Shown here in pieces: positions 1,426 to 6,322 of a stretch of 64,000 nt of DNA. The notes under the pieces were generated by a model. It was not told where the DNA came from. It ran no database searches and saw only the letters and a list, made by a program, of their open reading frames with translations. Source of the stretch: a virus (lineage: Duplodnaviria > Heunggongvirae > Uroviricota > Caudoviricetes > Ackermannviridae); the IMG/VR virus record IMGVR_UViG_2974693523_000001, positions 38,803-102,802 of that record. One strand, given 5' to 3'. The position numbers and the translations under genes were made by a program. Within the stretch, counting starts at the first letter, position 1, and the number at the start of each line of letters is the position of its first letter.

Positions 1426-1783
1426 TTTGTTCCTCAACATAATTAATTTCAAAAACTGTAATAGCTTTAATTATAATCTCATACCATGCAGAACGAAAAC
1501 CTGATTCATGGTATGAGAATAAATATTTATCACCATTGATGTTCACAACACCGTTTTGTAATTCACCATTATTAGAGGCAATGGTCATAAAATCAAAAGC
1601 TTTTCTATGGGTTTCATAATTGATAACAAACCAATCTTTCTTTTGTTCGATAGCGCTTTCTAATAAACTGTTAAATTCTAGGATCTGCTCCTCAGATACA
1701 TCTGTATCTCCATTGAGAATTTCTTCACAACATATCATACCAAAAGTACTGATTCTTTTTGCTACAAATTCCATTTTAGTCAC
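1418..1783 (-). CDS. hypothetical protein (121 aa)
   Basis: ORF packed tightly in a same-strand operon. Confidence 0.5.
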   Translation of the reverse strand: MTKMEFVAKRISTFGMICCEEILNGDTDVSEEQILEFNSLLESAIEQKKDWFVINYETHRKAFDFMTIASNNGELQNGVVNINGDKYLFSYHESGFRSAWYEIIIKAITVFEINYVEEQND

Positions 1784-2312
1784 CTAATTTTATTTGTCTG
1801 TCTTGAGGTCTTGAAAAAACATATGCTTCGCTTAGATTGCAATAGGTAAGAAGCCAATTCACATTACCTGTTGAAACAATCATAGGCGCATTTGAATTAC
1901 CAACACCAAGGTAAATGACATCACAAATGTTATAGAAACGGCTGTTTAGTGATATTTTTACAATGTGATCAAAATCAACAATACACTCAAGAAGAAACTC
2001 ATTAAGTTCCTTTTTCATTTTTTCCATAGGTTGATTATCTTTTAGATCATCATATGGTGTAACTACCTCACGGGGCTCGATACACATATTCATTATTTCA
2101 AAAGAATACATGAGTCGCTTCACAAGGAATTGCCCTTTACCACACTTGATGATAAATTTTGAACCAGAACCCTTATTTCTTTCTTCTATAAAATATCTAT
2201 CCAAAATAGGATAGGCAATATTAGACGTATCAATAACCGTTTTATCCCATAGACGTAAAGGTAATTGAGAACTCAATATAGATGCAAATCTGTTAAGTTT
2301 CATTTTAAACAC
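1776..2312 (-). CDS. hypothetical protein (178 aa)
   Basis: ORF in a same-strand operon; 8-nt overlap with downstream gene. Confidence 0.5.
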   Translation of the reverse strand: MFKMKLNRFASILSSQLPLRLWDKTVIDTSNIAYPILDRYFIEERNKGSGSKFIIKCGKGQFLVKRLMYSFEIMNMCIEPREVVTPYDDLKDNQPMEKMKKELNEFLLECIVDFDHIVKISLNSRFYNICDVIYLGVGNSNAPMIVSTGNVNWLLTYCNLSEAYVFSRPQDRQIKLGD

Positions 2313-2314
2313 CT

Positions 2315-2665
2315 TTAAAATATAGCTGTAATGGATGTTTCAATAAATTCTGGTGCGACCAATGTGTAACGCTCAGGGCATAGCGCATTATCAGCAGTAT
2401 AGAACGCGATATAAACAACACCATTAATAATAAAACGATGTACATAGTTGCTATGTTCTACCGCGTTTTCAATGAACCGGAATGCTTTCTCATTACCTAC
2501 GCTACAGATATCAAAAATTTCTTCTTTTTTGCGACCAACAAACATTTGTAAAAAAGCAGAACGCATTTCAAAAAATTCTTCTTTTGTTAAATCAGAATTC
2601 ATCATGACAATATTCCTATTAAAAGTTATTTTGAATACTTTAAACCAAAAATCTTCAATAAACAT
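2315..2665 (-). CDS. hypothetical protein
   Basis: ORF; track start at 2692 is GTG and lies inside a hairpin. First ATG is at 2665. Confidence 0.4.
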   Translation of the reverse strand: MFIEDFWFKVFKITFNRNIVMMNSDLTKEEFFEMRSAFLQMFVGRKKEEIFDICSVGNEKAFRFIENAVEHSNYVHRFIINGVVYIAFYTADNALCPERYTLVAPEFIETSITAIF

Positions 2666-2716: not shown

Positions 2717-2782
2717 TGGCGAGGGCGGGAGTTGAACCCGCTGTTTAGCTGTGCGGACTAAACAAAAACCTCTATCTACGCC
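2717..2782 (-). pseudogene. degenerate tRNA-like element (intact T-arm GCGGG-TTCAACT-CCCGC and acceptor 3' strand; no canonical D/anticodon arms; possible GCA loop)
   Basis: Manual folding: the T-arm and a 7-nt acceptor 3' strand are present, but the 5' acceptor partner and D-arm are not recoverable in about 66 nt. Confidence 0.3.
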
Positions 2783-2961
2783 TTTAATTTTTTGATGGTC
2801 CAGTCAAACAATGTCCACTTTGTTAGATAGCGATATGCATCTCTATAACTTTTAAACTGTGTTGCCTTATTAATATCCAAAGTATAACAGACATCACCTG
2901 GGAAACTAACAATATATTGTCTTTCACTGTTTGCTATAACAAACATATCACACCTTTAAAA

Positions 2962-3038
2962 TGGTGGGTCTGAGGGGAATTGAACCCCTGATCCTAGAGT
3001 TATGAGCTCTCCGCTTTAGACCGCTAAGCTACAGACCC
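2962..3038 (-). tRNA. tRNA-Met (anticodon CAT; could be initiator/elongator/Ile-lysidine type)
   Basis: Manual cloverleaf: acceptor GGGTCTG/CAGACCC, D-arm GCTT-AGCGGTCTAA-AGC, anticodon stem GAGAG/CTCTA with loop CTCATAA, T-arm AGGGG-TTCAATT-CCCCT, encoded CCA. Confidence 0.85.
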
Positions 3039-3706
3039 TTATAACGTATTAACTCCTTGATAGTATCAAAAGTGTTTGTATCAAGAAGTTTGATGTGTTC
3101 GCCTCTGATGATATACAATGGTTTAGTGCAATATGCCCATTTGCATTCATCCCTTTCTGTTTTATAACCCTTAACTTCTATAAAACATTCATAAGCGGGT
3201 AAATAAAAATCAGGGAAATATAAATGAGGACTTTCTCTCCAAATATACTCTTGAGGGTGTGTTTCACCTTCCCACTCTATGTTATTAGCATCAAGCCATT
3301 TGGCTACTAATAATTCCCAGTTACCCTTTAGTTTGTGGCCTCTGTATTCGATACAATTTCTTCCACAAACATTATTGGATGAATAAGAACTAGGGTTTTC
3401 AGAAACAGCCCTTTTCATCCTTTCTGAATGAGCCTTCCTTCTTTGATCAGTCCATTCAATGTTAGAACTCGCAACACTTAATTTTTCTCTAGTATCTTGA
3501 GAAACGATACACTCACGGCCTTCCTGTTTAGCTTTAGTGAATTGATTCTGACCATTACCTCTCCTTTCACTCATAGCTTTCAACCAAGCTTCTGATTTAG
3601 GTTTTTTAGGTTTGATGTTTATGTTATTCTTGCATGCGGACTCATGCACTGCTAAACCTCCAGTGTTCCCACATGTTTTCCCACAATATTTACATTGTAG
3701 CTGCAT
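3029..3706 (-). CDS. freestanding homing-endonuclease-like protein: N-terminal Cys/His zinc finger plus C-terminal PD-(D/E)xK nuclease core
   Basis: CKYCGKTC...HESAC zinc finger; C-terminal PDFYLPAYECFIEVKG fits D...ExK. Start moved to the ATG at 3706, where the preceding GAGG is an SD. The track's N-terminal extension (3707-3826) is built from tRNA remnants. Sits between tRNA genes. Confidence 0.5.
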   Translation of the reverse strand: MQLQCKYCGKTCGNTGGLAVHESACKNNINIKPKKPKSEAWLKAMSERRGNGQNQFTKAKQEGRECIVSQDTREKLSVASSNIEWTDQRRKAHSERMKRAVSENPSSYSSNNVCGRNCIEYRGHKLKGNWELLVAKWLDANNIEWEGETHPQEYIWRESPHLYFPDFYLPAYECFIEVKGYKTERDECKWAYCTKPLYIIRGEHIKLLDTNTFDTIKELIRYKGL

Positions 3707-3711
3707 AACAA

Positions 3712-3736
3712 CCTCTAACCACTGAGCTAAGGGGCC
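3712..3736 (-). pseudogene. tRNA 5'-half remnant (GGCCCCT-TA-GCTC-AGTGGTTAGAGG)
   Basis: Perfect tRNA acceptor-plus-D-arm signature with no matching 3' half nearby. Its GAGG now serves as the SD of the endonuclease gene. Confidence 0.45.
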
Positions 3737-3806
3737 AAAATTGGGAGCGGGATGGTTGATAGCCATCAGTATGTAATCCATCATAGGCAAGGCTTTGATG
3801 CCTTGG

Positions 3807-3842
3807 GTCTGTGTGCCTAGAATCACATACCTCTCCGCTTTA
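3807..3842 (-). pseudogene. decayed tRNA-Met-like remnant
   Basis: Shares the segments gggtctg, cctaga and cctctccgcttta with the intact tRNA-Met at 2962-3038, with internal deletions. Confidence 0.35.
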
Positions 3843-4340: not shown

Positions 4341-4417
4341 TGGCGCGCTGTACAGGATTCGAACCTGTGACCACAAGCTTAGAAGGCTCGTGCTCTATCC
4401 TACTGAGCTAACAGCGC
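4341..4417 (-). tRNA. tRNA-Arg (anticodon TCT)
   Basis: Manual cloverleaf: acceptor GCGCTGT/ACAGCGC, D-arm GCTC-AGTAGGATA-GAGC, anticodon stem CGAGC/GCTTG with loop CTTCTAA, T-arm ACAGG-TTCGAAT-CCTGT, discriminator G, CCA. Confidence 0.85.
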
Positions 4418-4652
4418 ATAAATTAATGAGGGTTACGCCGTCCCTCTGCTACCGCTTGCCGGCCATTACGCCTCATCAAAGTAGCCGATTTATTTTATTG
4501 AAATCCTCTTAAGTCGAATATAATAGAGCATACCTCTAAATTCTTTATAGCCATGTGCCACTCAAAAGGATTTCAATAAAGGGGCTGTTTCAAACCCCTT
4601 GGAATGGTGTGGATTAACAATCGCTGACCTGTAATTGTACAGGCACCACACG

Positions 4653-5282
4653 CTAGTTCACAGCGTCACCAATATGACTGAGTTGGTGAACGTCCCCATT
4701 GTCTAGGGCATCTCTCCACCTAAGCAAGGCTTCTTTAACTTCTTTATTACTCTGAGTCATAGCTAAACGGTAAGCATATTCAGATTTTCTTCTGCGCCAA
4801 GCATAATGAGCTTCTAACTCTCTTTCAAAAAGACCTAGATATCCACGTTTTTTATTGAATGGGTCATTACATTGCGCTTTGAACTTACCCGCTACTTTAC
4901 ACCAGCAAACACCTATGAGATATTCTCCAGAACTAGCTTTGTGATCATTTATGAACGCATTAATTTGCCTTGTCACAAACATACATGTATCAGGTGAATA
5001 TAATTTGTTCCCTACTAGCTTTAAATCTTTGTCTAGTACATAATCAAACCCATCTGTTGGGTAATTAGATTCATACCATTCAGCAAAATTTTGGTAGTGT
5101 AACCAATCACCACAAACTTCACATTCTTTATACGTTGGTTGCCTAGAATGATATTTCACGTCGTAGCATCTCTGGAGCATACTTCTCCATTTTATGTACG
5201 AATCTGTTAGAACGCCATCTTGACTCGCTTTATGACGCCCCTTTTCATAGACACCAACACCAAACAATAATTTGTTTCTCAT
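4653..5282 (-). CDS. freestanding homing-endonuclease-like protein with HNH-like region and AP2-type DNA-binding domain
   Basis: YLIGVCWCKVAGKFKAQCN..RGYLGLFERELEAHYAW fits the AP2 pattern. N-terminal GVYEKGRH...YIKWRSMLQRCY and LDKDLKLVGNKLYSPDTCMFVTRQINAF resemble phage HNH/AP2 homing endonucleases. Sits inside the tRNA cluster. Confidence 0.5.
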   Translation of the reverse strand: MRNKLLFGVGVYEKGRHKASQDGVLTDSYIKWRSMLQRCYDVKYHSRQPTYKECEVCGDWLHYQNFAEWYESNYPTDGFDYVLDKDLKLVGNKLYSPDTCMFVTRQINAFINDHKASSGEYLIGVCWCKVAGKFKAQCNDPFNKKRGYLGLFERELEAHYAWRRRKSEYAYRLAMTQSNKEVKEALLRWRDALDNGDVHQLSHIGDAVN

Positions 5283-5840
5283 AACAAATGTACTCGACGA
5301 AAACTTCTCAAAATATACTTTCTCAAATACATTTTGAGAAGTGGGTTGGGAAAATACCCACGTCCCGTCTGTCTCACGACAGTCTCAATCTAGCGGGTCT
5401 TAGGCTCCCGTTAGAAGGGTTCTGTACGGCTTGAGGGATGTAAGCCACCAGAACTAGCGAAACACAACATTTGATCGCGAAATGGCATGTTTATAGCGGT
5501 TGACTTCCCGCGACTGGCAAAACCCCAGTCCATAGAGCGTGGTATGCGTTGCCTCACTCTTTTAAGCGGTCTTAATCTTAGATGAGGAATCCGTTAGCAA
5601 CAATGTTAATCGGATTGATTAAGACCGCTTAAAAAAGACCCCTACACTAAAGGGGTGAACATAAATTTATGTCCTTTTAAAACGCACTTTATCACATCAA
5701 AACAAACTTGAAAAATTTATTTTGATGTGACCCCTATACAGGGACCACAACTGACCTCCGAATCCCAACAAAACGAGGGTCACTGGTTTGCCATGCCATG
5801 TCTTACCAGCTTTAAACACTCTTGACAAAAAGCGCTTAAA
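5283..5840. other. 558-bp structured non-coding region (multiple perfect hairpins/palindromes); candidate stable small RNA(s)
   Basis: 14-bp perfect stem aagcggtcttaatc...gattaagaccgctt (5563-5632) with an internal aatccg/cggatt stem. 14-nt palindrome acataaatttatgt. 11-bp inverted repeat tcacatcaaaa/ttttgatgtga. No credible ORF. Confidence 0.4.
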
Positions 5841-5842
5841 GA

Positions 5843-5919
5843 TGGCGTCCACAATGGGATTTGAACCCATGACCTTTCCCTTAGGAGGGGAATGCTCTAT
5901 CCAACTGAGCTACGCGGAC
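5843..5919 (-). tRNA. tRNA-Arg (anticodon CCT)
   Basis: Manual cloverleaf: acceptor GTCCGCG/TGTGGAC (two G-U pairs), D-arm GCTC-AGTTGGATA-GAGC, anticodon stem TTCCC/GGGAA with loop CTCCTAA, T-arm ATGGG-TTCAAAT-CCCAT, discriminator G, CCA. Confidence 0.75.
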
Positions 5920-5921
5920 GG

Positions 5922-6011
5922 TGGTGGGTGCAGATGGATTCGAACCATCCCGTTTCAAACCTCATTCCTCACAAGGATATGCGCGACCTCTCGCTATTAC
6001 AGTTTACACCC
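5922..6011 (-). ncRNA. 90-nt tRNA-like RNA (intact acceptor GGGTGTA/TGCACCC, T-arm GATGG-TTCGAAT-CCATC, CCA) lacking a canonical anticodon/D arm
   Basis: Manual folding: the ends are perfectly tRNA-like, but the interior 55 nt folds as a GCGA-GAGG-TCGC hairpin and gives no 5-bp/7-nt anticodon arm. Either a type-II tRNA that needs tRNAscan-SE, or a tRNA-derived stable RNA. Confidence 0.35.
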
Positions 6012-6019
6012 AAATTGAA

Positions 6020-6106
6020 CACCCCGTGCAGGATTCGAACCTGCGTCACTTTCGGTATCTCGAGCACGAGTCTCCGACTAATCTTAACCGCTAGAATGAA
6101 CGGGGT
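6020..6106 (-). ncRNA. 87-nt tRNA-like RNA (acceptor ACCCCGT/ACGGGGT, T-arm GCAGG-TTCGAAT-CCTGC, no encoded CCA) with non-canonical interior
   Basis: Manual folding: acceptor and T-arm are perfect, the D-arm is weak, and the interior forms an extended interrupted hairpin TCGG-AGA-CTCG-TGCT-CGAG-ATA-CCGA instead of an anticodon arm. Confidence 0.3.
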
Positions 6107-6322
6107 GGTTGGCGGTGAGTAATTTAGCTAACTCACCTTATCAATTTATATTATTAAAGAGCTTTTGGGTGTTTTAAGTAAGGGCGGATTTTAACCCGCC
6201 CTGTACTTTGGACGCCCCGTTAAGTAACTAAGCTGCTGTTTTTGAACTGCTTATTCCTTAACTTGAGACCATTAAAACATGCTTAATTTATGAAAGCAAC
6301 ACATTTTTAATTTTTTTTTTTG

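Follow-up and report, generated by a model that had tools for sequence, protein, structure and literature searches.

Putative genes for two tRNA-shaped RNAs without anticodon loops beside a tRNA-Arg gene of Vibrio phage vB_VchM_Kuja

Stable tRNA-like RNAs have been known from the phages T4 and T5 since the 1970s-80s. T5 (NC_005859) carries rna1 and rna2, annotated as ‘tRNA-like stable RNA with unknown functions’, and rna3, a ‘putative tRNA-like RNA’, in a tRNA cluster that is interspersed with HNH homing-endonuclease genes. In T4, rnaC and rnaD (species 1 and 2 RNAs) adjoin tRNA-Arg and the homing endonuclease SegB, and a role has not yet been assigned to these RNAs (PMC3014915). The 3′ 91 nt of rnaC combine a 7-bp acceptor-like stem and a GGTTCGAATCC T-arm (CCGGG-TTCGAAT-CCCGG) with a non-tRNA interior, whereas rnaD ends in CCA but gave no match for an acceptor stem plus T-arm in our scan.

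Here, we analysed a window of 64,000 nt from Vibrio phage vB_VchM_Kuja (Ackermannviridae), in which two elements, designated E1 and E2, carry no annotation in the GenBank or RefSeq records. Our analysis confirmed the observation, made from sequence, of two adjacent tRNA-like elements; they adjoin a genuine tRNA-Arg. By analogy, we would place E1 and E2 among the T4/T5-type tRNA-like stable RNAs, as added members of a kind already known: both lie in a cluster of tRNA and homing-endonuclease genes, as in T5, and in both, as in T4 rnaC, acceptor-like stem and T-arm enclose an interior that is not of tRNA type. The T5 RNAs are, like E1 and E2, tRNA-like yet not tRNAs. In particular, the fold of T5 rna2 (8-bp acceptor stem, D-like hairpin and extended central arm) corresponds to the design of E2 and of E3, an independent element of the related phage SUMAE, and the T-arm of rna2 reads GCAGG-TTCGAAT-CCTGT (compare E2 in Table 1). 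However, blastn detected no similarity between the T5 RNAs and E1/E2, and rna1 and rna2 are larger (125-144 nt) and their interiors branch. On gels, the T5 RNAs appeared as stable species, whereas E1 and E2 are predicted from sequence. Sequence similarity to T4 rnaC/rnaD is likewise nil; rnaC has a 48-nt 5′ extension, unlike E1 and E2, and the T4 pair comes after tRNA-Arg, whereas E1 and E2 come before it.

Layout and detection of the locus

E2, E1 and tRNA-Arg(CCU) are arranged head to tail in this order on the minus strand (Table 1), with tRNA-operon-like spacers of 2-8 nt. The tRNA-Arg(CCU), whose anticodon stem covaries between Kuja, L015 and L013/L023, starts 2 nt past the CCA of E1, and the two probably share one transcript. 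A promoter-like site is located upstream of the tRNA-Asn remnant, E2, E1 and tRNA-Arg, and the AGCTCTTTAA motif around it was also found in the relatives L013 and L023. Behind the E2-E1-tRNA-Arg unit follows a structured trailer of about 200 nt, and the terminator-like hairpin likely ends the transcription unit; L013 keeps a hairpin and T-run at this position with a different stem sequence. HNH endonuclease genes flank the locus, and between the two tRNA-Arg genes we found neither a group I intron nor another known RNA (Rfam, E ≤ 1). The locus also harbours a split tRNA-Met, the 5′ half of which abuts an endonuclease ORF, and a 65-nt mini tRNA-like element.

Table 1 Features of the Kuja locus in window coordinates
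Feature	Position	Strand	Remark
Sigma-70-like promoter match TTAAAA-16-AATAAT	6150..6177	−	consensus scan only
tRNA-Asn(GUU) internal-deletion remnant	6110..6137	−	minihelix: acceptor stem and GCCA only
E2, putative tRNA-derived RNA gene, 92 nt	6016..6107	−	dissection, pair table and variants
E2 D-arm ATTC-TAGCGGTTAA-GATT	6080..6097	−	one U.U mismatch in Kuja and L023
E2 extended arm GUCGG-AGA-CUCG-UGCU-CGAG-AUA-CCGAA	6051..6078	−	replaces anticodon stem-loop; outer stem covaries
E2 T-arm GCAGG-TTCGAAT-CCTGC	6028..6044	−	stem invariant across all variants
E1, putative tRNA-like RNA gene, 90 nt	5922..6011	−	sequence and four distinct variants in relatives
E1 hairpin 1, GCGA-GAGG-TCGC	5983..5994	−	invariant save G28A in L024/L025
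E1 hairpin 2, 6-bp stem, 4-5-nt loop	5960..5976	−	sole hypervariable part of E1
E1 T-arm GATGG-TTCGAAT-CCATC	5933..5949	−	canonical; A-U to G.U in L013
tRNA-Arg(CCU)	5843..5919	−	ARAGORN and Rfam, 66.7 bits
Intrinsic-terminator-like hairpin and T-run	5638..5656	−	about 190 nt downstream of tRNA-Arg(CCU)

With at most one mismatch, GGTTCGAATCC occurs four times in the 64 kb (0.43 expected), and all four matches fall in tRNAs or in E1/E2; the exact motif is found in E1, E2 and tRNA-Arg(UCU). A whole-genome scan for a T-arm combined with a perfect 7-bp acceptor stem yielded nine matches, and the five that are not AT-rich correspond to three tRNAs, E1 and E2. Folding stability by itself was unremarkable for the two elements (z = −1.25 and −1.46).

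ARAGORN at default settings called no tRNA at 5922-6107, and neither E1 nor E2 reached the gathering score of any Rfam family, the best result for RF00005 being a local T-arm match of 15.2 bits in E2 (gathering score 29 bits). ARAGORN and Rfam made no tRNA call for the orthologs in L002, L013 and L023 either. Two other RNA classes were considered and rejected: a tmRNA was not called by ARAGORN or Rfam at default, with only spurious permuted calls at the 70% threshold, and the match to the Y RNA-like YrlA (RF02553; 21.2 bits, E = 0.08, against a gathering score of 69) covers the T-arm of E1 together with the D-arm of the next tRNA. Apart from generic tRNA/T-arm matches, blastn searches of 50,697 phage records with the locus and with each element returned only Kuja, SUMAE and VPALA.

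Architecture of E1 and E2

An earlier note on this DNA had described a 7-bp acceptor stem and a canonical T-arm in both elements, and both are present. Acceptor stem and T-arm are common to canonical tRNAs (RF00005), E1 and E2, and D-arm and variable loop to canonical tRNAs and E2; in contrast, the 7-nt anticodon loop and the anticodon are missing from E1 and E2, and the acceptor stem of E2 has 8 bp. The ends of both elements are of tRNA type, with a 7-bp acceptor stem, a TTCRANY-type T-loop and a discriminator plus CCA; Kuja E1 and L013 E2 encode this CCA, whereas Kuja E2 and SUMAE E1 do not.

The acceptor stem of E2, ACCCCGT/ACGGGGT, extends to 8 bp as CACCCCGT/ACGGGGTG, the eighth pair falling one base past the end coordinate given in Table 1. 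The D-arm is fully paired in L013 (AATC/GATT), and E2 also has the A at position 26 and a 6-nt variable loop. Its anticodon loop is swapped for a closed helix capped by a tetraloop, while the rest of the tRNA body is complete. This arm contains exactly the interrupted hairpin reported before (TCGG-AGA-CTCG-TGCT-CGAG-ATA-CCGA), and the description of the E2 interior as ‘non-tRNA’ is thus correct for the replaced anticodon loop, but not for D-arm, position-26 A and variable loop, which are retained. The segment enclosed by the arm is 18 nt long in Kuja, as against 34 nt in L013, and although the two sequences are dissimilar, both versions form a tetraloop-capped helix; in L013, the inner helix has 13 bp and a GUGA loop. 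Stability of the arm amounts to z = −2.15 in Kuja and z = −5.0 in L013 (0/500 shuffles), and the minimum free energy fold of the L013 ortholog is the E2 cloverleaf. Kuja E2 shows possible signs of wear, i.e. the U.U mismatch of its D-stem, a G.A mismatch at the base of the arm and a TTCA tail (U-UCA), in which UCA stands where L013 E2 encodes CCA.

E1 is a looser cloverleaf consisting of two small capped hairpins and long, near-invariant linkers. Its acceptor stem GGGTGTA/TGCACCC has 7 bp including one U.G pair, and its 3′ end is formed by a discriminator A followed by an encoded CCA, in agreement with the note, which was also accurate on the 55-nt interior with GCGA-GAGG-TCGC. Hairpin 1 has an alternative, D-arm-like register, GCG-[AGAGGUCR]-CGC (5981-5994); G28A breaks the first register by a C.A mismatch and occupies a loop position in the second. 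The GG of this hairpin could pair with the T-loop. The loop of hairpin 2 was found as GAGGA, CUAGA or CAGA.

Several further ideas on the interiors were rejected. Linker pairings of E1 are broken in L013 (AAAC/GUUU) or in SUMAE (CUGU/ACGG), and inspection by eye for a kissing contact of the E1 loop with the arm of E2/E3 revealed no co-varying complementarity. As to antisense targets, the E2 arm has no complement of at least 11 nt elsewhere in the genome, and a single 13-nt complement of the E1 5′ linker upstream of gp045 (0.23 expected) was treated as chance. Coding on the plus strand (ORFs 5892-6122 and 5921-6094) was dismissed, as L013 differs in length by 16 nt and the reading frame is not maintained there.

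A 5-bp anticodon stem with a 7-nt loop, U33 and a conserved anticodon is absent from E1 and E2, and since neither has an anticodon loop, neither is expected to read codons. Could an intron or an expanded loop nevertheless be removed or tolerated, so that a decoding tRNA results? The full tRNA body of E2 would be in line with this idea, and ARAGORN, when introns are allowed, reads SUMAE E3 as a tRNA-Thr(AGU) with a 14-nt intron; yet the same program (-i, default thresholds) made no call for Kuja E1 or E2. If the inner helix is taken out, as derived by hand, the remainder amounts to 6 nt for Kuja and 4 nt for L013 without a common anticodon, and the E1 loop of 4-5 nt differs in every phage. In addition, small tRNA introns of the bulge-helix-bulge type are not known in bacteria. 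Unusual decoders are therefore, in our view, scarcely credible.

Conservation and covariation in relatives

Relatives were obtained by protein look-ups in Logan assemblies, and the comparative sample comprises four distinct variants of E1 and three of E2. E1 is carried by Kuja, L015, L023, L024/L025, L013 and SUMAE/VPALA (six relatives of Kuja, namely four Kuja-like Logan contigs and the phages SUMAE and VPALA), E2 by all five Kuja-like contigs, and every carrier has the same non-tRNA interiors. No match was obtained in IMG/VR by pattern scans for E1 or by scans for the neighbouring baseplate hub (single protein, alignment), nor in a genome scan for the E1 core, and one metagenome scan gave chance or unrelated matches only. 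In the Ackermannviridae K362, BX-1 and TSW001, the syntenic position is free of tRNA genes, and where other contigs carry a homolog of the HNH gene, its context is unrelated. SUMAE E3 follows an E2-like design, with an 8-bp acceptor stem, a canonical D-arm, a closed extended arm, a 5-nt variable loop and an ACCA end.

Among the 22 consensus pairs of E1, there are two doubly compensated ones and three with single changes of the G.U type; all five variable pairs are still paired, and the only broken cell is a C.A. The changes in hairpin 2 concern the pairs 39-49 (U.G to A-U), 41-47 (U-A to C-G) and 40-48 (G.U to G-C). A shuffle control for the covariation in E1 was not significant, as 203 of 500 shuffles reached the observed value. 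In the outer arm stem of E2, pair 27-43 occurs as G.A, G-C or U-A, pair 29-41 as C-G or U-A and pair 30-40 as G-C or G.U, while the acceptor and T stems have zero changes among the variants. Pairs of E2 and E3 were tabulated by script; MAFFT misaligned the D-arm and the 3′ strand of the arm. Taken from these alignments, the stem changes appear to respect pairing, unlike in plain pseudogenes, which in a sample as small as this is indicative, not significant.

Are E1 and E2 nonetheless plain relics, that is, dead tRNA genes (E2 an ex-tRNA-Arg) that were damaged by indels or endonucleases and hitch-hike in an HNH co-conversion tract, with transcripts as functionless by-products? The locus does contain debris, namely the deleted tRNA-Asn, the 5′ tRNA-Met half and the 65-nt mini element. 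For the tRNA-Asn remnant, relatives hold an intact tRNA at the orthologous position, as expected of a pseudogene: it is intact in L023, L024 and L025 and missing from L013. Between Kuja and L013, the block from E2 through the HNH homing-endonuclease gene is 92-98% identical, whereas the hub proteins share 54%, which fits recent homing; part of the ‘conservation’ therefore stems from recent co-conversion and not from purifying selection. In SUMAE, the slot upstream of E1 holds a genuine tRNA-Arg(CCU) with a similar acceptor stem (E2 acceptor positions 2-7 are those of this tRNA), and for this reason E2 probably descends from a tRNA-Arg. The sole exact bacterial match to the E2 T-arm plus 3′ acceptor strand, a tRNA-Arg(ACG), speaks for relics as well, as do the U.U and G.A mismatches and the absent CCA of Kuja E2. 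E2 is devoid of A20 and C35, the identity elements for ArgRS.

On the other hand, substitutions in the stems leave pairing intact with few exceptions, three pairs being doubly compensated, and both versions of the replaced E2 segment fold into a well-formed capped helix. The E1 scaffold is better conserved between Kuja and SUMAE than real tRNAs are: E1 is 87% identical overall and near-invariant outside hairpin 2, compared to 81%, 83% and 63% for the shared tRNAs, although the flanks are unalignable and the baseplate hub proteins share only 52% identity. Moreover, E1 and E2 are kept throughout the Kuja-like genomes, while the true tRNA-Asn of this operon varies among them between intact, deleted and absent. 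The earlier proposal of tRNA-like RNAs instead of decaying copies is thus borne out by interiors shared among relatives and by stem changes that mostly preserve pairing. The note had named plain tRNAs at these positions in relatives, with disabling indels in the Kuja copies, as the pattern that would refute it. For E1, this pattern was not observed, as all relatives have the non-tRNA interior with compensatory changes and none has a plain tRNA; for E2, it was largely not observed either, all five Kuja-like contigs having the capped arm and covarying stem, with the tRNA-Arg(CCU) upstream of E1 in SUMAE as the one caveat. All in all, we regard plain relics as unlikely, albeit worth serious consideration.

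The same substitutions bear on the idea that E1 and E2 act in cis, either as RNase P punctuation for tRNA-Arg and its trailer of about 200 nt or as DNA recognition or homology sites of homing endonucleases. In T4, the tRNA region is spread by SegB, which recognises the T-arm motif GGTTCRANTCC within tRNA genes (PMC2330249). The exact GGTTCGAATCC in E1, E2 and tRNA-Arg(UCU) and the flanking HNH endonuclease genes are compatible with a DNA site, and the tight operon packing followed by a structured trailer is compatible with punctuation. A DNA site, however, does not account for compensatory changes in arms that are distant from the T-arm, and for mere punctuation the invariant single-stranded linkers of E1 would be superfluous. 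For the cleavage of tRNA-Arg, RNase P requires no tRNA-like element upstream. We hence consider an action in cis decidedly improbable.

Proposed function of the RNAs

What, then, might these RNAs do? We suggest, at slightly better than even confidence, that E1 and E2 are non-decoding tRNA-shaped RNAs that are processed, stable and act through their tRNA body. One promoter would drive a transcript of tRNA-Asn (or its remnant), E2, E1 and tRNA-Arg(CCU), from which the host tRNA-maturation machinery would excise E1 and E2, with RNase P cutting the 5′ end, exonucleases trimming the 3′ end and CCA being repaired or added. In gamma-proteobacteria, tRNA 3′ ends are matured mainly by exonucleases, and ‘RNase Z’, as named in the note, is for this reason less apt. 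The products would build up as L-shaped RNAs of about 90 nt, E2 presumably being a remodelled tRNA-Arg-type body in which a closed helix of variable length replaces the 7-nt anticodon loop, and E1 a more derived cloverleaf with capped hairpins. For RNase P processing and stable accumulation, we rely on the architecture, the 2-8-nt spacers and the precedents in T4 and T5, with E1 and E2 as putative counterparts of T5 rna1/rna2/rna3 and T4 rnaC. As selection seems to act on the tRNA body and on arm pairing, the RNAs most likely work through the body, and the likeliest role would be that of a mimic, decoy or scaffold for a factor recognising the tRNA elbow and acceptor end. While architecture, conservation, covariation and genomic context of E1 and E2 were observed directly, transcription, processing, stability and the mimic role are inferred.

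The use of a tRNA body for processing and stability has parallels. In engineered tRNA scaffold RNAs, the body serves this purpose and a hairpin of interest takes the place of the anticodon arm; this is exactly the layout of E2, though scaffolds are artificial and share no homology with it, and a cargo role of the E2 arm would be hypothetical. The tRNA-like RNAs of the gammaherpesvirus MHV68 also employ a tRNA body for processing and stability and are not aminoacylated, but they are eukaryotic, driven by RNA polymerase III and without homology to E1 and E2. The geometry of E2 and SUMAE E3 has a counterpart in tRNA-Sec and allo-tRNAs (family features according to PMC7609411 and PMC5389517): the 8-bp acceptor stem and 5-bp T-stem (8/5) add up to a 13-bp stack, a non-7/5 geometry, whereas E1 is 7/5. 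An unpaired discriminator followed by CCA is found in register in L013 E2 and SUMAE E3. By contrast, the long variable arm, the 6-bp D-stem with 4-nt loop and the UCA anticodon of tRNA-Sec are missing from E2 and E3. The 8-bp acceptor stem may further keep E2 off EF-Tu, as reported for tRNA-Sec.

A more specific reading, which we put forward as speculative and quite unlikely, takes E1 and E2/E3 as a functional mimic pair, in which the invariant body provides for processing, stability and factor binding and the capped arms, which are unlike even in phages that are otherwise near-identical, diversify under selection in an arms race. Each phage of the clade has one E1-type and one E2/E3-type element, and the body would be bound by a host or defence factor; the pair could, for instance, decoy or inhibit a defence or toxin that targets tRNAs, or represent hairpin effectors on a natural scaffold. 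If true, this would be the first function for T4/T5-type tRNA-like RNAs. If E1 and E2 are relics instead, the locus would still clearly illustrate the remodelling of a tRNA cluster by homing endonucleases.

As non-decoding, tRNA-shaped RNAs, the previously unannotated E1 and E2 would extend the phage tRNA-like RNAs to another family, the Ackermannviridae. They also offer a small comparative series, in which acceptor stem, D-arm, T-arm body and arm pairing are constrained, while arm length and loop sequence are free. Our results also suggest that genes of this kind in phage tRNA clusters are systematically overlooked by annotation pipelines.

E1 and E2 in the tRNA operon of Kuja

The window shares 100% identity with Vibrio phage vB_VchM_Kuja (Ackermannviridae, Kujavirus; record position − 38,802 = window position). 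E1 and E2 are two tRNA-shaped genes, structured and conserved, that lack an anticodon loop and lie packed in a tRNA operon. Every tRNA gene of the window lies on the minus strand, as do both elements, with E2 followed head to tail by E1 upstream of tRNA-Arg(CCU), 2 nt from the end of E1. Their site is without any annotation in GenBank or RefSeq, and ARAGORN and Rfam recognised neither element, nor the orthologs.

An earlier note had described two ~90-nt tRNA-like RNAs with intact ends and non-tRNA interiors. Its structural statements were all correct, and three refinements were added. The acceptor stem of E2, given there as 7 bp, is present, but the helix comprises 8 bp and begins at 6107. In the interior of E2 the anticodon loop is indeed replaced by a closed, capped helix (the arm), whereas the D-arm, the A at position 26 and the short variable loop are kept, leaving a full tRNA body in which the anticodon loop alone is exchanged. 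Hairpin 2 of E1 (6-bp stem, 5-nt loop) is not an anticodon-like arm. That the pair are intron-containing or otherwise odd decoders appears exceedingly improbable.

The T-arm motif occurs four times against 0.43 expected, always in tRNAs or in E1/E2, and a whole-genome scan for a T-arm with a perfect acceptor stem behind it gave nine matches, five of them not AT-rich, namely the three tRNAs, E1 and E2. Judged by folding energy only, the two elements do not stand out (z = −1.25 and −1.46). The features of E1 and E2 are not due to chance.

Features of the Kuja window and of related contigs
Feature	Source	Position	Strand	Basis or remark
E2	Kuja	6107-6016	−	CACCCCGT-TC-ATTC-TAGCGGTTAA-GATT-A-GTCGG-AGACTCGTGCTCGAGATA-CCGAA (acceptor 5' strand to arm), then AGTGAC-GCAGG-TTCGAAT-CCTGC-ACGGGGTG-TTCA
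E1	Kuja	6011-5922	−	GGGTGTA-...-GATGG-TTCGAAT-CCATC-TGCACCC-A-CCA
E1 hairpin 2	Kuja	5960-5976	−	
Sigma-70-like promoter match	Kuja	6177-6150	−	consensus scan
tRNA-Asn(GUU) remnant	Kuja	6110-6137	−	acceptor stem and GCCA only: GGTGAGT-TAGCTAAATT-ACTCACC-GCCA
tRNA-Arg(CCU)	Kuja	5843-5919	−	ARAGORN, Rfam; copy compared
tRNA-Arg(CCU)	L015	3402-3478		copy compared
tRNA-Arg(CCU)	L013	7040-7116		copy compared
tRNA-Arg(CCU)	L023	1974-2050		copy compared
Trailer	Kuja	5638-5842	−	
Terminator-like hairpin	Kuja	5656-5638	−	
Non-coding HNH flanks	Kuja	5290-5635; 4420-4650	−	~350 nt; ~230 nt
HNH gene	Kuja	4653-5282		>1,000 phage homologs
tRNA-Arg(UCU)	Kuja	4341-4417	−	ARAGORN, Rfam
Endonuclease ORF	Kuja	3029-3826	−	abuts 5' tRNA-Met half
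5' tRNA-Met half	Kuja	3727-3750	−	GGCCCCTTAGCTCAGTGGTTAGAG
tRNA-Met	Kuja	2962-3038	−	ARAGORN, Rfam
Apparent endonuclease insertion	Kuja	2962-3826	−	
Mini tRNA-like element	Kuja	2713-2779	−	GGCGTAG ... GTTTAG-TCCGCACAG-CTAAAC ... GCGGG-TTCAACT-CCCGC-CCTCGCC-A-ACC
Complement to E1 linker	Kuja	~1453-1465	−	GCUAUUACAGUUU
E3	SUMAE (L002)	2752-2842		
Mini tRNA-like element	SUMAE (L002)	2422-2486		
TnpB gene	L015	41-1270		
Chance match	L008 (Ga0268261_10071788)	1635-1822		metagenome contig

Conservation and covariation in relatives

Sequence searches of the phage collection returned only Vibrio phages SUMAE and VPALA, mutually identical in this region, and IMG/VR, metagenome and genome scans gave no useful homolog. 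Five further contigs were obtained via protein look-ups in Logan assemblies (L013, L015, L023, L024, L025); L015 is nearly identical to Kuja, and the neighbouring baseplate hub protein of L013 shares 54% identity with that of Kuja. A pattern-scan hit in metagenome contig L008 is a chance match unrelated to E1, in which a tRNA-like 3' half is joined to its own reverse complement, giving a long inverted repeat across a T-arm.

E1 is present in every relative found (SUMAE, VPALA and all five contigs), in four different versions. Its overall identity between Kuja and SUMAE is 87%, compared to 52% for the hub proteins and 81%, 83% and 63% for the shared tRNAs; it is near-invariant except for hairpin 2, its flanks are unalignable, and its neighbours in SUMAE differ from those in Kuja, with tRNA-Arg(CCU) on one side and tRNA-Arg(UCU) on the other. 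The RNAalifold consensus holds 22 pairs. Hairpin 2 contains two doubly compensated pairs (U.G to A-U and U-A to C-G), single changes of the G.U type affect three pairs, and the one broken cell, C.A in L024/L025, is no longer broken when hairpin 1 takes the D-arm-like register GCG-[AGAGGUCR]-CGC. Covariation across related phages was named in the earlier note as a check. For E1 a slid-partner control gave a clear result (100% of cells paired versus 29-49%); a shuffle control, on so few sequences, was not significant. For E2, covariation appears at three pairs of the outer arm stem: 27-43 (G.A, G-C or U-A), 29-41 (C-G or U-A) and 30-40 (G-C or G.U).

All five Kuja-like contigs carry E2, in three different versions, and neither the 8-bp acceptor stem nor the T-stem varies among them. 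Over a ~1.7-kb block Kuja and L013 share 92-98% identity; the segment enclosed by the arm is nonetheless wholly different, with 18 nt, a 4-bp helix and a UGCU loop in Kuja and 34 nt, a 13-bp helix and a GUGA loop in L013, where the minimum free energy fold of E2 is a perfect cloverleaf and the arm reaches z = −5.0 (matched by 0/500 shuffles). After the 8-bp stem the tail reads U-CCA in L013 and U-UCA in Kuja. SUMAE has no E2; instead it has E3, of the same design (8-bp acceptor stem, canonical D-arm, 4-bp stem around 21 nt, 5-nt variable loop, A-CCA), so that every phage carries one RNA of the E1 type and one of the E2/E3 type. What selection maintains is the body and the pairing of the arms rather than the length of an arm or the sequence of a loop, and we therefore favour a role of the tRNA body as mimic, decoy or scaffold.

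E3 is one of two further unannotated tRNA-like elements beside the tRNAs of SUMAE (and VPALA); the other, a mini element of 65 nt, has the acceptor GGTGTGG/CCACACC, the hairpin GTCT-AATATTA-AGAC and an odd T-loop, TGCGACC.

Probable remodelling and tRNA loss in an endonuclease-rich locus

We infer that E2 is probably a remodelled tRNA-Arg-type gene: its acceptor positions 2-7 are those of SUMAE tRNA-Arg(CCU), which fills the slot upstream of SUMAE E1, and the only exact bacterial match to its T-arm and 3' acceptor strand is tRNA-Arg(ACG). Homing endonucleases abound at this locus, and E1 and E2 could be plain relics hitch-hiking with such an enzyme, which we consider unlikely. Between the promoter match and E2, tRNA-Asn(GUU) is intact in L023, L024 and L025, an internally deleted remnant in Kuja and L015, and absent in L013; a true tRNA is thus being lost in the same operon, whereas both elements are retained every time. 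The Kuja/L013 block is near-identical although the hubs share 54% identity, a sign of recent co-conversion, and what these two have retained in sequence is therefore poor evidence of function. The Kuja-SUMAE comparison of E1, the compensatory stem pattern, the well-formed replacement arm of E2 and the tRNA-Asn contrast survive this objection. That both elements serve as cis-acting punctuation or DNA-level endonuclease sites seems quite improbable to us; T4 SegB does recognise GGTTCRANTCC, the T-arm motif (PMC2330249).

Several further observations concern the surroundings. The 5' tRNA-Met half matches that of SUMAE tRNA-Met and adjoins the start of the 265-aa endonuclease ORF, whose 3' end overlaps another, complete tRNA-Met; the arrangement resembles an insertion of a homing endonuclease by which one tRNA-Met was split and a substitute introduced. 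The 65-nt mini element of Kuja pairs at 5/7 acceptor positions (6/7 in L015) and gives a weak Tymo_tRNA-like match (19.6 bits, E = 0.55). The ~200-nt trailer from tRNA-Arg(CCU) to the terminator resembles a structured RNA: RNAalifold (Kuja, L013, L023) predicts 72 pairs, 8 doubly compensated, including a 13-bp hairpin immediately 3' of the tRNA, and entire hairpins are exchanged for hairpins of different sequence. Over most of their length the non-coding flanks of the HNH ORF show 95-98% identity to L013, interrupted by small patches that are fully replaced, and they have no Rfam match, group I introns included. Among near-identical phages, the tRNA-Arg(CCU) anticodon stem shows compensatory exchanges (TTCCC/GGGAA, CTTCC/GGAAG, TTTTC/GAAAA), a turnover unusually fast for a tRNA. 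In L015, an IS605-family TnpB (OrfB/Cas12f-like) gene lies beside the locus, ~3 kb upstream of the tRNA genes; none is listed in the Kuja annotation of the matching stretch.

Known phage RNAs and a candidate function

We propose that E1 and E2 would be co-transcribed with tRNA-Arg, cut free by RNase P, trimmed and CCA-repaired at the 3' end, folded into L-shapes via the D-loop GG and the T-loop, and would build up as stable RNAs incapable of decoding. The 13-bp acceptor/T stack of E2 and E3 may also keep these RNAs off EF-Tu, by analogy with tRNA-Sec. The feature reported in the earlier note is real, and its interpretation as processed, stable tRNA-like RNAs is supported in part: we hold it somewhat probable that E1 and E2 are functional RNAs of this type, with much lower confidence in any specific role. 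A 13-nt perfect complement to the invariant 5' linker of E1 lies ~18 nt upstream of the gp045 Shine-Dalgarno sequence and ~27 nt before the start codon; at a chance expectation of 0.23, coincidence is quite possible.

Assignment of E1 and E2 to tRNA, tmRNA, YrlA, tRNA-Sec/allo-tRNA or intron-bearing tRNA failed in each case. In the T5 RefSeq record, rna1 and rna2 are annotated as 'tRNA-like stable RNA with unknown functions' and rna3 as 'putative tRNA-like RNA', all three situated amid tRNA and HNH genes; the fold of rna2 comprises an 8-bp acceptor stem, a D-like hairpin, an extended arm and a T-arm that reads GCAGG-TTCGAAT. T4 rnaC, whose 3' 91 nt are tRNA-like, and rnaD adjoin tRNA-Arg and SegB, and their roles are unknown (PMC3014915). 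E1 and E2 have design and context in common with these RNAs, but no detectable sequence similarity. They belong to an already known, functionally unexplained kind and are not a new category; as a conserved pair of RNAs that lacks annotation but comes in a small comparative series, they make an old question open to experiment.
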